Shown here: positions 7,946-22,498 of the stretch, in pieces
Layout of the letters: each line of letters begins with the position of its first letter
Numbering within the stretch: the first letter of the stretch is position 1
From: a virus
Taxonomy: Duplodnaviria; Heunggongvirae; Uroviricota; Caudoviricetes
DNA: 37,447 nt
Virus record (IMG/VR): IMGVR_UViG_2609459830_000021
Direction: 5' to 3' (one strand)
Position numbers and translations under genes: made by a program
The notes under the pieces: generated by a model
Seen by the model: only the letters and a program-made list of their open reading frames with translations
Databases searched by the model: none
What the model was told of the DNA's origin: nothing

Positions 7946-9651
7946 CAGTGAGCCATCCAGTGTGTGGTTCTGCGTTTATCCGTTTTCTGTCTTACCCTCA
8001 CCGGCATTCTGGCGCGCATCTCCTGGGCAATCATGTAGCTCATAAGCTGATCATCAAAACAGCCTTCCTGTGCATTCATGGAGCCTTTCGCGTCATAAAC
8101 GTAGGTGTTCATTTCTGATAATGTGCCCGTCCAGCGGATCCCCGACAGGCCGTTATTCAGCAGCGTTTTCATTCCCTCAGTCAGGACCGGTTTACTCTGG
8201 CGGGTTGTCAGCCAGCCAAGACGGGGCGTATCGTCGTCATATGCCTGGTCAAGGTGCTGTTCGTTGTAGATATAACGCATCGGATAGAGTTCCCGGAGTT
8301 TCAGGATAACGGCATGTCCGTGATTGTTACGCTCCGGCCCCACAAACGCGTTGTTGTACATACGGCAGACCTGCGCAATGAGATGAGCGAAAAGCTCCGC
8401 ATCGAGATGACCAAACCAGTGGGCTACCTGCTCACCATTACTACATCTGATGATATCCAGCGATGAGCGGTCTCCGTGCTCCAGCCCCTCAGCGGTATCC
8501 GCTCCGCATACATACTCTTCATCCGGATCCGGTAGCTCCCAGACCAGCAGATAATTCATCAGCGTCCGGTGCTGTTCGGCTTTATTCCCGTCACGCAGAG
8601 ACTGCGCTTTGGTCTTCGTTCCTGTAACCGGTTCAATGTCATAAACAATCAGCGGTGGCGAACAGAATGACTCTGCCTGCAGCGTGCTTTCCGCACTGAA
8701 CACCCGTCGTCCGGACGTCAGAAACGCCTCCTGTGGTGTTGAGGGAAACTCCTGCTTCATTTCCTCACGCTGTTCAGTTTCCTTGCAGATGTACCAGTGT
8801 TTCTGCTCATCGGTAAGCGTGATGTTCATTGCTTTTTCAACCGCAGAAAAATACGCTGTTTTTTCCCGTGACAGCTTAAGTCCGCTTTCCGGCACTCTGG
8901 CGCTGTATTTGAGATCCTGCCACCAGGCGTAAAAATGGAATTTATAATCCTGTGGCGTCAGCGCCAGCCCTGATGCAGTGATTTCCTGTGCCCGGTTACT
9001 CATCTCGTAAAAATCGCCACCCACACCTTCAGCAGTGGATTCATCAAAAATAATGCACTCATCAGAGACGGCATTAAGTGTACCGGTTCGCAGCTCTTTC
9101 GCCTTAGCCGGATATTTTGCGCAAATTTTGCCGTGCTCTGAGATATGCAGGCGCTGCACCGTACCTGAACGGAATGAGGTTGCCACCTGGATACTCGAGC
9201 CGTGCCCAAACAGGATATAGCCACCGCTGGCTCCGCTACGACGTTCAACGATGGTGAATGAGGCTCTCAGCCAGTCAGGAAGATGATCGAACGGTACAGC
9301 AATTTTGGTGCGGAAAATTTCACTGGCAGCCTGTTTATCCTGAGCGACAATCCCGCATTTGAGATGCGGTATGAATAATGCCTGGTCGAGAAGATAAATA
9401 TCAATGGCCGTGGAAAACCCCAGCTGGCGTGCTTTCAGGATAATATTTTTATTGTGCATGCTCCGGAACAACTGGCGCTGCGCCGGTCGCATTCTGAAGG
9501 TGACCAGCTCACCTTTTTCGTTCTGTATCTTGTAGAGATGATTGAGCCGCCACCAGGGATTGCTCAGTTTAGTCATGATGAACAGACGTTGTTCGGCCTC
9601 TGTCATTTCTGACGGTTCATCACATCGCGGTTCATTCTTCCGGAATGTCAT
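7945..9651 (-). CDS. terL: terminase large subunit (568 aa)
   Basis: size, position between small terminase and portal; ATPase/nuclease-type composition; overlaps TerS stop. Confidence 0.75.
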   Translation of the reverse strand: MTFRKNEPRCDEPSEMTEAEQRLFIMTKLSNPWWRLNHLYKIQNEKGELVTFRMRPAQRQLFRSMHNKNIILKARQLGFSTAIDIYLLDQALFIPHLKCGIVAQDKQAASEIFRTKIAVPFDHLPDWLRASFTIVERRSGASGGYILFGHGSSIQVATSFRSGTVQRLHISEHGKICAKYPAKAKELRTGTLNAVSDECIIFDESTAEGVGGDFYEMSNRAQEITASGLALTPQDYKFHFYAWWQDLKYSARVPESGLKLSREKTAYFSAVEKAMNITLTDEQKHWYICKETEQREEMKQEFPSTPQEAFLTSGRRVFSAESTLQAESFCSPPLIVYDIEPVTGTKTKAQSLRDGNKAEQHRTLMNYLLVWELPDPDEEYVCGADTAEGLEHGDRSSLDIIRCSNGEQVAHWFGHLDAELFAHLIAQVCRMYNNAFVGPERNNHGHAVILKLRELYPMRYIYNEQHLDQAYDDDTPRLGWLTTRQSKPVLTEGMKTLLNNGLSGIRWTGTLSEMNTYVYDAKGSMNAQEGCFDDQLMSYMIAQEMRARMPVRVRQKTDKRRTTHWMAH

Positions 9652-10447
9652 CCAGTCTCCCCGAATTACTCATTTCATGCAGCGATGACACGATGTCACT
9701 GACAGGCGTAACAACGCCCCGACGCTGGCTGGTCAGAATATCGGTTTCCGCTCTGAGTTTATCTCTGGCAGCGTTGGTTCTTTCCCGGTCAGCACGAAGT
9801 TTTGGTGCTGTTTCAGCCAGAACGTCCAGCGTCAGCAATGAGCGTTCAATTGACTCGATACGGGCAATATTCCGGTCAAGAGCCTGTTCAGCTTTGAGTA
9901 TTTTGTCGTACAGAGCAACACGGGTTTCCACGTCAGCCGCCTCTTTCAGGTCGGCGAACATTTTTTTCAGTGTTCCTGTTACTGAAAGTGCGCGGGCCCG
10001 GGTAAACACCAGTTCATCGGCAAGTTCCATTCCGACTGCATCATCTATGAGGTTATCTGCCTCGAGATACTTCGCGTATCCACGGTGTCTGACGGCGTGG
10101 GTGTTACGCTGAGAAAAAGCATTTGAAGGTGGCAAAAGTCTGGAACCACGAGTCCGTTTCGTTTCTGCCAAATTTGCGCATTTTTCATCACAACCATCAT
10201 CGCCTGAAGGCTCGTCATGACTGGAGTTGCCGTCAGATTTCTGCGCACTTTTTTGATCATCAATTTGCGCATTTTTCTGCGCACTTTTCTCTGTATTTCT
10301 GGGGGAGTGTTTGCGCAGTTTAATGTACCGCCGAGCCGTGTCATAACTGATATTGTTCTGACGGCACCAGTCCTGAAGCTTTATGCCGGTTTTGACATGT
10401 TCGCGTCGAAATGCCTGCTCCAGCTTTTTCCAGTCCAGCTTTGCCAT
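9632..10447 (-). CDS. terS: terminase small subunit (271 aa)
   Basis: N-terminal HTH-like segment (NNISYDTARRYIK), coiled-coil C-terminal part, immediately upstream of TerL. Confidence 0.65.
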   Translation of the reverse strand: MAKLDWKKLEQAFRREHVKTGIKLQDWCRQNNISYDTARRYIKLRKHSPRNTEKSAQKNAQIDDQKSAQKSDGNSSHDEPSGDDGCDEKCANLAETKRTRGSRLLPPSNAFSQRNTHAVRHRGYAKYLEADNLIDDAVGMELADELVFTRARALSVTGTLKKMFADLKEAADVETRVALYDKILKAEQALDRNIARIESIERSLLTLDVLAETAPKLRADRERTNAARDKLRAETDILTSQRRGVVTPVSDIVSSLHEMSNSGRLDDIPEE

Positions 10448-10985
10448 GTCACCTTCTGACGTTCTCTGTTAAAAACTGATGCACAATGACTGCTGTAAAT
10501 TTTCAGATTTCACACAGCAGAGCCATGTCTGATTAATGTTTAACCTTATTTAGGTTATATCCGCTTCATTCCACTACAGCACCAGATAGGCTGCCTCGCG
10601 GATAAATGCCAAAGTCTCCTGATATAGAAACCCGTCGCCACATCGAGCGCTGATCAACATTTGTATATTCACTGCGACAGAAAGAATTTATTTTATTGAA
10701 TAGTTAGAAATACAGAATTGCATGCTTTATAAGCATTGACGCACACTTCATTTTTAGCAATATATTCTGTTCTCATAGACGATCAGCCCTGCATGCACTG
10801 CCGGACACCGTCGGCAATTTTACAGACCTAAGAGGCAATACCAAAAAGCTAACGCGCTTTATCAAGACTTGAGCAACCAACCAATAAAAAAAGCACCAGT
10901 ACCGCTACCAATGCCCATTTCGTCGTTGTTCACAGCATTCTGTGTACCCACTGTATTTCGCGTCATATCACCACGTCAGACAATC

Positions 10986-11002
10986 CTTAAGGATTACATA
11001 AG
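10986..11002 (+). promoter_or_regulatory. PmrA/BasR-box-like direct repeat CTTAAG-N5-CATAAG upstream of ais-like gene
   Basis: sequence cttaag gatta cataag at 10986-11002, followed by cataat (11010-11015) as -10 candidate and AAGGGA RBS before ATG 11050; resembles YTTAAK-N5-YTTAAK PmrA box (recalled consensus). Confidence 0.35.
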
Positions 11003-11049
11003 ATTTACGCATAATAATGCCCATTTTCAACACAGACAAGGGAATTTAT

Positions 11050-11631
11050 ATGTTAAATCAAACGCTAACAAAATCTCTTCTTATATTTTTACTTGTCATA
11101 ATCGTTTCTGTATCCATCATATACATTGTAAGAACTCCAGTCAGACTTGATGTGAACGATGTCACTGAGATTAACCAGAAACATCCCATTATTTTTCTCA
11201 TCCGGCATGGGGAAAGATGCGATCGCTCCCAAAGAATATGTCTTTCAGCACATGAGGGAATCACAGTAAACGGAGCTAACAAAGCTCAACAATATGGAGA
11301 TAAATTCAGAAGAATGTTTCCATACTACAGTCTCTATTCTACAGACACACTCCGAACAATGCAGACAGCCACTTTTTTTTCGGGAGGTAAGACAGCAACT
11401 ATTCCGGACATATCGACATGTGATGATAACGCAGTAAATAATATCCTTAAAATATCAAAATCAGATCATGTTACTGTGATTTTCACACATAATCACTGTC
11501 TGTCCAGAATTGCAAAAAAAATGAATGGATGGAGATTTAAACCTGATTATATGGGCACACTGGTTCTGCATCGGGAAAATCACAATCTGATTCTCGACGG
11601 ACATTTAAAACCAAACGAGCTTACCCAGTGA
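11050..11631 (+). CDS. Ais/PmrG-like histidine phosphatase (putative LPS core heptose(II)-phosphate phosphatase), signal-anchored; moron
   Basis: RHGERCDRS (RHG catalytic motif), GITVNG, YSLYSTDTLRTMQTATFFSGGK, VIFTHNHCL, FKPDY motifs line up with E. coli Ais as recalled; N-terminal hydrophobic segment; opposite strand to flanking late genes, AT-rich flank. ORF track start 11017 trimmed to ATG 11050 with RBS. Confidence 0.6.
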   Translation: MLNQTLTKSLLIFLLVIIVSVSIIYIVRTPVRLDVNDVTEINQKHPIIFLIRHGERCDRSQRICLSAHEGITVNGANKAQQYGDKFRRMFPYYSLYSTDTLRTMQTATFFSGGKTATIPDISTCDDNAVNNILKISKSDHVTVIFTHNHCLSRIAKKMNGWRFKPDYMGTLVLHRENHNLILDGHLKPNELTQ

Positions 11632-11687
11632 TCCATTTGTTGATAATGCACTGGCATTGATTCAGGTTATATCTCTCCTCATAAAAA

Positions 11688-11705
11688 AGGCCAGCGATTG
11701 AGCTG
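11688..11705. terminator. hairpin between ais-like gene and Rz (possibly bidirectional)
   Basis: gccagcgattgagctggc flanked by A-run upstream and tctgtt downstream. Confidence 0.35.
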
Positions 11706-11711
11706 GCTCTG

Positions 11712-12170
11712 TTAATCGAGGCATTGCATCCTGATGTACTCCTGCAGGTAGTTAACCTGCGCGGTTATCTTGTCGATTCCACTTCGGAGACGGTAATAAT
11801 TGAGTTCAGCATCTGCTGTAAGTCCTGAGCTTTCTCCATCGCCCATGCCGCTGGCTCCGGTCGTTGACTTTGCACAGGTGGCGGCGACTTGCAGGCGCTT
11901 ACGCCCAGCAGAAACATCAGCACGGAGACTTTCAATAGTCGCGTTAGCATCAGCAAGCTCCCTGGTGTATCTGGCATCGAGTGCAGCAACATCACGCTGG
12001 CGCTGCTGTATGTCAGCAATGGTGGCGTTCGCCTGGCTGAGTTTTGTCTTCGCATCATCTCGCTGCTCTTTGTAGGTGATGGCGTTATCACGGTAATGGT
12101 CTGTTGCCAGCCACAGCGATCCACAACCAAGCAGCAGGACAATAAGCACGCCATACAGCACACGATTCAT
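11712..12170 (-). CDS. Rz: i-spanin Rz (152 aa from ATG 12170)
   Basis: MNRVLYGVLIVLLLGCGSLWLATDHYRDNAITYKEQRD... closely parallels lambda Rz (…AVNHYRDNAITYKAQRD…, from memory); N-terminal extension MPFVLW... in ORF track rejected. Confidence 0.85.
   Translation of the reverse strand: MNRVLYGVLIVLLLGCGSLWLATDHYRDNAITYKEQRDDAKTKLSQANATIADIQQRQRDVAALDARYTRELADANATIESLRADVSAGRKRLQVAATCAKSTTGASGMGDGESSGLTADAELNYYRLRSGIDKITAQVNYLQEYIRMQCLD
11765..11950 (-). CDS. Rz1: o-spanin Rz1 (61 aa lipoprotein) embedded in +1 frame of Rz
   Basis: MLTRLLKVSVLMFLLGVSAC with lipobox LGVSAC, proline-rich mature part KSPPPVQSQRPEPAAW; AGGGAG RBS 8 nt upstream of ATG 11950. Confidence 0.75.
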   Translation of the reverse strand: MLTRLLKVSVLMFLLGVSACKSPPPVQSQRPEPAAWAMEKAQDLQQMLNSIITVSEVESTR

Positions 12171-16354: not shown

Positions 16355-16534
16355 AAACTCGTAGAGCAAAATGCTGTTACGCAAACTTCGTTACAGGGTT
16401 ATCCTGCAATACTTAAAATATACAATATTTAGAAAACTAATAGTGCCATATGAGATTTTTAAGATTTTGTTATTAATTGCGGTCGTACCTTCCTTTCTGT
16501 GTACTTTCCGTATAGCTCACAGGATTCTGGGTAC

Positions 16535-22012: not shown

Positions 22013-22498
22013 TTAGTTTTGCTGTTCTATTTTAAGCTTGATAGTTTCATACAAAACAATAGTTGCGCCTGTTTTACATAATTCCCGGCTGTCATACGCA
22101 CGAGACCAATAACACAACCAGTTCTCGAGATCTTCTCGAGTATAGGTTTTGCAGGCCAGTCCCTCTGCCATTTCCACGATTTCATCGCCTGGTGCTGTTA
22201 ACTCATAGCCATTCAACAACAAGAAGACATAACCAGCCATCATAGCTGTTCGTTTGTTTGCATTAGCAAATGGATGATTCTGAATCAGACTTTCAATCAA
22301 TACTGATGCCAGTACAAACATGTCATTAGTCTGTTCATACCATCGAACCATGCTGGGACGAGACTGAGAAGAACTTAAATTATCAACACTCAGCACACTA
22401 ACAGGTTCATCTGGTGTTTGAAGCTCAATTAAAAGGCGATTAATTTCGGTAAGATCATCAAACGAAAGGTAGTGCACTCCTTCAACAATCTCAGCCAT
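22013..22498 (-). CDS. doc: Fic/Doc-family toxin (Doc-like, 161 aa from ATG 22498)
   Basis: Fic motif HPFANANKRTAMMAGYVFL (HxFx(D/N)xNKR); ORF track start 22507 is TTG, ATG 22498 preferred. Confidence 0.7.
   Translation of the reverse strand: MAEIVEGVHYLSFDDLTEINRLLIELQTPDEPVSVLSVDNLSSSQSRPSMVRWYEQTNDMFVLASVLIESLIQNHPFANANKRTAMMAGYVFLLLNGYELTAPGDEIVEMAEGLACKTYTREDLENWLCYWSRAYDSRELCKTGATIVLYETIKLKIEQQN

Follow-up and report, generated by a model that had tools for sequence, protein, structure and literature searches.

In Salmonella, the phosphatase PmrG removes the heptose II phosphate and is activated by PmrA (PMC8129183, PMC4312571). PmrA boxes consist of two hexamers (CTTAAG / xTTAAT, or xTTAAY) that lie 5 bp apart and replace the −35 element; PmrA contacts the TAA bases, and an imperfect second half-site is tolerated, as with CCTAAG at pbgP of Klebsiella pneumoniae (PMC3973317, PMC10570014). 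Here we describe a phage-borne relative of the enzyme in a 37,447-nt stretch of viral DNA (IMG/VR record IMGVR_UViG_2609459830_000021; "the window", to whose positions all coordinates refer), which represents a prophage of E. coli O104:H4. An earlier note on this sequence had placed an Ais/PmrG-like lipopolysaccharide (LPS) core phosphatase gene, preceded by a candidate PmrA (BasR) box, between the small terminase gene terS and the lysis cassette. Both the enzyme family and the box are well established, and the Prokaryotic Genome Annotation Pipeline (PGAP) already names the gene. The combination is that of an Ais paralogue, a promoter of the PmrA regulon type and a cargo gene (moron) in the slot of bor, each of a known kind. 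We found no paper on a phage-borne ais/pmrG clade or on its PmrA wiring in the open-access papers searched. As a whole, we consider it probable that the gene is a PmrA-wired, membrane-anchored Ais-like moron acting on the LPS core.

Membership of the protein in the Ais family of phosphatases is nearly certain, judging from profile, residue and fold comparisons. The earlier note had described a histidine phosphatase with Ais/PmrG motifs and had asked for a BLASTP and hidden Markov model comparison with Ais/PmrG and the histidine phosphatase superfamily, which bore it out. The protein passes the cut-offs of Pfam His_Phos_1 (PF00300; 28.7 bits versus 21.7, residues 59–125 of the 204-aa form) and of NCBIfam NF011945, the LPS core heptose(II)-phosphate phosphatase subfamily (202 bits versus 142; chromosomal Ais/PmrG proteins reach 366–392 bits). 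Compared with K-12 Ais, it shows 43% identity across 158 aa. In family alignments of 21 and 33 members, R52, H53, E55, R56, C57, D58, R59, C64, H147 and C150 are invariant, and R102 and H149 are nearly so. The complete set RHGERCDRS...R102...H147-N-H149-C is retained, including the RHG nucleophile and the Arg and His residues of the phosphate pocket. An AlphaFold (AF2) model built on the family alignment (predicted local distance difference test, pLDDT, 91.9) has an N-terminal helix at residues 2–26 followed by an alpha/beta domain. Its top Foldseek matches in the PDB are phosphoserine phosphatase 5zkk, SixA 1ujb and the histidine-phosphatase domain of MutT1 (probability 1.00 each), and a sequence search of the PDB returned no match. 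We also tried NF052369, the "PmrG equivalog", as a membership test and rejected it as uninformative: the protein scores 113 against a cut-off of 170, and K-12 Ais and Salmonella PmrG fail too (∼146). This profile seems to have been built for some other lineage. The start codon at 11050 is the PGAP start and the aligned start of all homologues. An upstream ATG at 11017 was rejected, as it overlaps the −10 element inside the promoter and the homologues all align at 11050.

The phage protein thus shares with Ais (E. coli b2252) and PmrG (Salmonella) its profile and sequence identity, the motifs RHGERCDRS / R / THNHC, conserved cysteines, its size (193 versus 200 aa), an N-terminal hydrophobic segment and, by prediction, a link to PmrA. 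It differs in forming a separate clade and in lying on a prophage rather than beside arnB. Phage-type relatives cluster apart from chromosomal Ais/PmrG and form a separate cluster at a 45% distance threshold; because of this separation and the prophage location, the gene is best classed, on the sequence comparison, as an Ais paralogue and not an orthologue. The N-termini differ as well. The signal peptide of Ais carries an H-A-A cleavage-like site. In the phage protein, a conserved R-T-P comes after a long hydrophobic helix, and this N-terminus looks like an uncleaved anchor. Since the helix is hydrophobic and has basic residues ahead of it in every lineage, and since the cysteines show conservation, the phosphatase domain is predicted to be exposed to the periplasm.

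Upstream of the gene, the earlier note had pointed to CTTAAG-N5-CATAAG as resembling a PmrA box. The sequence is present (Table 1), is conserved across five promoter types and has the geometry of the arnB, ugd and waaH promoters. The window taken alone does not single it out. With at most one mismatch, YTTAAK-N5-YTTAAK has 3 matches (2 sites) versus 1.87 expected, a number equalled in 29 of 100 shuffles. A position weight matrix (PWM) built from 8 chromosomal PmrA boxes ranks it first in the window (15.3 bits, with 12.1 for the runner-up); a random window reaches as much 20% of the time. The significance of the box comes from its position and its conservation in related loci, not from window statistics. 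Two weak PmrA-like matches elsewhere in the window, TTTAAGATTTTGTTATT at 16458–16474 (+; PWM 12.1 bits) and ATTAATCGCCTTTTAAT at 22428–22444 (−; probably within an early-operon coding sequence), are both within chance.

The earlier note had also taken CATAAT as the −10 element. This hexamer does exist, at 11010–11015, and overlaps AATAAT at 11013–11018. As a −10 it is the less likely choice: a hexamer 7 nt after the box is not conserved across lineages, and the one at 10 nt is, which favours AATAAT. Transcription would then start near 11025, as read from the sequence. There is no −35-like hexamer, and a promoter scan lists no plus-strand promoter at this site. An RcsAB-like or OmpR-like site was considered and rejected by eye, the TTAA/TAA cores alone being conserved.

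We compared the promoter regions of nine lineage representatives, whose proteins are 50–85% identical and which fall into five promoter types with mutually unalignable flanks. The pattern xTTAAk-N5-xxTAAk was found at the matching position in all nine. With comparison loci denoted by L numbers, the boxes read CTTAAG-gatta-CATAAG in the window, CTTAAG-gatta-CGTAAG in L026, CTTAAG-gat(t/c)a-CATAAG in L015/L016/L048, ATTAAT-tgcct-CATAAG in L030/L031/L049, CTTAAG-ga(t/c)tc-CTTAAG in L018/L050, CTTAAG-gattt-TTTAA(G/T) in L035/L036, GTTAAG-attt(t/c)-CTTAAT in L023/L052/L053 and ATTAAG-cgtta-TTTAAT in L051. Differences among the boxes do not exceed the known degeneracy (x at position 1 and G or T at position 6), and L018 and L035 are natural variants with a perfect box. 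The box starts 64–71 nt ahead of the ATG (64 nt in the window). Exactly 10 nt after it stands AATAAT, TATAAT, TATATT or CATAAT, or a poor AACAGT in the plasmid copy L051. The TTAA/TAA cores are 100% conserved. Between promoter types, identity is 0.77 over the 12 box positions and 0.78 over the −10, versus background values in the flanks (0.29 over 40 nt upstream, 0.34 over 24 nt downstream). In shuffled upstream regions, the core motif occurs 60–75 nt from the ATG with a probability of 0.0074 per sequence. Because the cores are fully conserved while the flanks are at background and dS is ∼1, the box is, on this comparison, conserved beyond neutral expectation.

As a specificity control, we searched both strands of 824 kb of retrieved DNA for the composite of box cores, 10-nt gap and −10-like hexamer. 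Of 53 matches, 38 lie before phage Ais-like genes, 14 are arnB or ugd promoters (of Escherichia, Citrobacter and Intestinirhabdus) and 1 lies elsewhere. On this evidence the phage gene is very probably activated by PmrA. Two loci depart from the pattern. In L028 (2896–3000; E. coli GCA_016655505.1, 83% protein identity) the first half-site is replaced (..ccaaaaaGATTACATAAT..) and the gene is intact, a natural box-minus variant. In the Salmonella enterica copy (L033/L034, 1212–2933; 70% identity) IS3-family transposase genes end 68 nt before the ATG, so the original promoter is gone.

Among chromosomal PmrA targets, arnB (pbgP), ugd, waaH (yibD) and eptA (pmrC) likewise have two xTTAAk hexamers with 5-nt spacing in the place of the −35. 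In K-12 the boxes are CTTAAG-gttaa-GTTAAT (arnB), CTTAAT-attaa-CTTAAT (ugd) and CTTAAT-agttt-CTTAAT (waaH), and 10 nt downstream of them stand TAAAAT, TATTCT and TAAAAC, respectively; the phage gene has the same 10-nt gap, which also occurs at arnB in 12 other enterobacterial genomes. The numbering for K. pneumoniae (box at about −37 to −21) would imply a gap of 8 nt on a synthetic scaffold, as against 10 nt in the phage. Measured from the start of the box, the start codon follows after 63 nt at eptA, 65 nt at waaH and 64 nt at the phage gene. The phage promoter differs in its second half-site (A instead of T at position 2, a change similar to the functional CCTAAG at pbgP), in a lower PWM score and in its location on a mobile element.

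The promoter of chromosomal ais is built differently. The ais–arnB intergenic region of E. coli, other Escherichia, Salmonella arizonae/diarizonae, Citrobacter and Intestinirhabdus holds a single, arnB-oriented box 160–210 nt upstream of ais, and no forward box was found near ais in the chromosomal ais/pmrG loci examined (L003 3621–3910, L055–L072). We therefore rejected the idea that the phage promoter is a copy of the ais promoter; with its forward box in the −35 position it appears to be of the compact eptA/waaH/arnB type. The chromosomal box is quasi-symmetric (ATTAAT-ttaac-CTTAAG on the ais strand), and the route of ais activation is not obvious from the sequence.

Phage-type relatives form a graded series from 85% down to ∼50% protein identity, nearly all in E. 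coli. Wherever the context sufficed, the gene was found on the opposite strand, flanked by the end of a lysis cassette and by the small terminase gene. The carrier phages vary in their terminases (lambda Nu1/GpA, Terminase_2 or DUF1441 types) and endolysins (lysozyme, GH108 or M15 peptidase types). Exceptions are the plasmid copy L051, which lies between insertion sequence (IS) elements, and the Salmonella copy with an IS directly upstream. Every lineage has an intact open reading frame (ORF). The ratio of nonsynonymous to synonymous substitution rates (dN/dS) is 0.19–0.39, with dS ∼1 (near saturation) between lineages, which indicates purifying selection on the gene. Of 5426 complete E. coli genomes, 83 contain a relative at the DNA level and 43 the exact allele. 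GER2 (L001 6603–7184, MG710528) is the sole carrier in a set of 50,697 phage records. The GER2 record annotates a 273-nt coding sequence and a spurious antisense ORF at this place, and tblastn finds the full 193-aa ORF intact with 99.5% identity. A scan of species-representative genomes found chromosomal orthologues and distant Pseudomonas relatives only, and no phage-type copy.

Copies of the phosphatase family at ∼45% identity are also known from other mobile elements, namely TraG of IncI1 (R64-type) plasmids and island-type Ais-like paralogues. These differ from the phage gene in lying in a transfer operon or by genes for EAL-domain and SPATE (serine protease autotransporter) proteins. About 1440 plasmid records, mostly conjugative and of the IncI1 type, contain such a homologue annotated as traG or histidine phosphatase. 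TraG of the O104:H4 plasmid pESBL bears the annotation of this phosphatase, and it was rated mostly dispensable for transfer (PMC4288162). The more distant paralogues (43–49% identity) of L038–L040 (3001–3582) and L041–L043 lie just downstream of an EAL-domain gene, and those of L038–L040 also adjoin two hydrolase genes and a serine-protease autotransporter gene (Peptidase_S6). No PmrA box was found within 200 nt upstream of the island-type copies (L038, L041).

A prophage found in E. coli O104:H4 (C227-11, 2009EL-2050 and others) matches the window with 100% identity, and at this locus the Stx1 phage GER2 of the genus Oslovirus does so with 99.4%. The genes of the prophage include those for an N4-gp56-type capsid, portal, terminase, Q, a nanS-p-like SASA esterase and a class II holin. 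The window annotation has neither stx nor tRNA genes in a prophage that is otherwise of the Stx-phage type. The element is a lambdoid, Oslovirus-type, stx-less prophage. Also present are genes for Cor and a HokD toxin, and several toxin-antitoxin genes.

The position that the earlier note had given the gene, on the opposite strand in an AT-rich block between terS and the lysis cassette, holds in full. Positions 10448–11711 are the entire gap from the start of terS (10447, −) to the stop of the Rz-like gene (11712, −), with a GC content of 39.2% (36.8% from the box through the stop codon) versus 49.3% for the whole window, and 11017/11050–11631 is the sole sizeable plus-strand ORF in it. Homology to the Oslovirus relatives TL-2011c and P13374 breaks at 10601 and resumes at ∼11719. 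The same slot holds a Bor-like gene in TL-2011c and ant + rha in P13374, an O104:H4 Stx2a phage. Since the contents of the slot differ among close relatives and homology breaks at its borders, the Ais-like unit can be classed from its sequence as a classical moron in the slot used by lambda for bor; it lies in a variable slot on the opposite strand, has a GC content of 37–39% versus 49%, and is present or absent among relatives. With lambda bor and Bor-like morons it shares the Rz/terminase junction, the opposite-strand orientation and a product predicted to be directed to the envelope. Unlike bor, it encodes an enzyme rather than a lipoprotein, and its promoter appears tied to a host two-component system.

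We propose the following mechanism. Because the gene is transcribed against the direction of the late operon, it could be expressed in a lysogen. BasS/BasR (PmrB/PmrA) would be activated by Fe3+, Al3+, Zn2+ or mild acid, and phospho-BasR would bind the box and recruit or reposition RNA polymerase in the way it does at arnB, eptA, ugd and waaH. The transcript from about 11025 would be translated from the ATG at 11050 into the 193-aa protein, whose N-terminal helix would insert into the inner membrane with the phosphatase domain toward the periplasm. There, a catalytic set made up of the nucleophile H53 with R52, R56, R102 and H147 would most probably remove an inner-core phosphate of LPS, namely the heptose(II) phosphate taken off by Salmonella PmrG. 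The negative charge of the lysogen surface would be lowered alongside the host's own PmrA-controlled LPS modifications, which may benefit the lysogen. By analogy with PmrG, we lean slightly towards heptose(II) phosphate as the substrate.

Several points weigh against this proposal. Identity to Ais is 43% and the phage proteins are a clade of their own; E. coli Ais itself bears the label "putative", which makes the substrate an extrapolation. By consensus search and by PWM alike, the box does not exceed chance in the window alone. Its 15.3 bits lie below those of the chromosomal sites (19–25 bits), because its second half-site is CATAAG and not YTTAAK. The loss of half-site 1 in L028 and of the promoter in Salmonella suggests that the wiring is dispensable in some hosts. 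Finally, the plus-strand terminator is weak, and whether the Ais-like transcript ends there is uncertain.

The alternative that survives best, though we consider it unlikely, keeps the activation by PmrA and changes the substrate. The enzyme might act on the Hep(I) phosphate or diphosphoethanolamine, on the lipid A 1-diphosphate made by LpxT, on Kdo-linked groups or on a periplasmic phosphoprotein, with a conversion phenotype unlike that of PmrG. The separation from Ais in sequence (43% identity, own cluster), in NF011945 score (∼202 versus 366–392 bits) and at the N-terminus (hydrophobic helix and R-T-P versus signal peptide with H-A-A) would fit such a change, and a host that already has ais leaves a redundant copy in want of a reason. 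However, the family-invariant residues are all kept, including RHGERCDRS and THNHC, co-regulation with the LPS-modification regulon of PmrA suits an LPS substrate, and nothing points to any specific alternative.

Improbable, in our view, is that the box is non-functional, i.e. an inherited sequence without function, and that the gene is constitutive, otherwise regulated or H-NS silenced, with transcription from AT-rich −10-like sequences. The chance-level statistics in a single window, the imperfect second half-site and the intact gene of L028 without half-site 1 are what one would expect in this case, and conservation could partly be descent, given the shared ancestry of the phage copies. Yet the flanks are at 0.29/0.34 with dS ∼1, and the cores are 100% conserved at an exact −10 spacing, with variation confined to the known degeneracy. 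Moreover, the composite pattern is nearly absent from the 824 kb outside phage genes and known PmrA promoters, and there is no −35-like hexamer for activator-independent initiation.

A third possibility takes its lead from a database label. One source names P0066 (E. coli UMNF18, 150 aa) "transcriptional activator AfrS", by which the protein would be a regulator of adhesin expression and not an LPS enzyme. P0066 turns out to be the product of an L023-type phage gene copy with a frameshift, the family has the complete catalytic set and fold of a histidine phosphatase and no DNA-binding domain, and the name is not traceable to a paper (a literature search for AfrS/AfrR gave unrelated papers only); we regard this reading as highly improbable. 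That the gene is a decaying, functionless passenger, as its rarity (83 of 5426 genomes) and the adjoining pseudogene remnant might suggest, is hardly credible with intact ORFs in all lineages, invariant catalytic residues and a dN/dS that contradicts it.

Table 1. Features of the Ais-like locus and its surroundings in the window
Feature	Position	Strand	Basis or remark
Terminase small subunit gene (terS)	9632..10447	−	flank
Variable cargo slot between terS and Rz: Ais-like module and upstream gene remnant	10602..11718	.	GC ∼39%
Pseudogene of a 60-aa lipoprotein gene, LVGC lipobox, o-spanin-like, 3 in-frame stops	10786..10953	−	tblastn
Predicted PmrA/BasR box CTTAAG-GATTA-CATAAG, direct hexamers, 5-nt spacing	10986..11002	+	11/12 to YTTAAK-N5-YTTAAK
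Best-supported −10, AATAAT, 10 nt after the box	11013..11018	+	lineage comparison
Shine-Dalgarno-like AAGGGA, 5 nt before the ATG	11039..11044	+	read from sequence
Coding sequence, 193 aa, Ais/PmrG-subfamily histidine phosphatase, predicted anchored or exported (WP_000934362.1)	11050..11631	+
Hydrophobic helix, residues 2–26	11053–11127	+	AlphaFold model
R52-H53 of the RHG motif	11203–11208	+
H147 codon	11488–11490	+
GC-rich hairpin GCCAGC-N6-GCTGGC	11690..11707	−	terminator scan and fold of 11625–11725
Rz-like spanin, lysis protein, last gene of the lysis cassette	11712..12170	−	flank

The remnant that precedes the box lies outside the moron unit. In tblastn, the lipoprotein of the WP_215415841 type from L044 matches it with 66% identity over 56 aa, the window copy having three stops, and a DNA match spanning 10614–10974 has 79% identity. 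In other E. coli prophages the lipoprotein gene is intact beside M15-peptidase lysis cassettes (L044 2671–2853), which suggests that the Ais-like module came along with the tail end of the lysis region of another phage. At the other end of the gap, the hairpin is followed on the minus strand by TTTTTT and is a good intrinsic terminator for Rz; the terminator scan reported it on that strand only, and the plus-strand T tract is weak. An Rfam scan of 10300–11900 at a permissive threshold gave no match.

If the wiring works, the locus would clearly exemplify a cargo gene of a prophage that is connected directly to a host two-component regulon for LPS charge. More tentatively, it is possible that lambdoid E. 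coli phages repeatedly carry an Ais-like periplasmic phosphatase at the lysis/packaging junction under a PmrA-dependent promoter, with which they remodel the charge of the core only in PmrAB-inducing conditions (iron, acid, gut) for conditional protection, perhaps on a substrate unlike that of the chromosomal enzyme. Protection would then consist in masking core-dependent receptors for phages or conjugation, or in added resistance to metals and cationic peptides, and the homologue in the IncI1 transfer region would suggest that mobile elements in general make use of core dephosphorylation. The prediction is precise, with box, −10, start codon and catalytic histidine defined to the nucleotide, and is cheap to test. 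The strain background (E. coli O104:H4, some Shiga toxin-producing and enterotoxigenic E. coli) is medically relevant. If it is true, the PmrA/BasR regulon gains a horizontally mobile member, which would bear on resistance to polymyxin, cationic peptides and metals and on phage adsorption.

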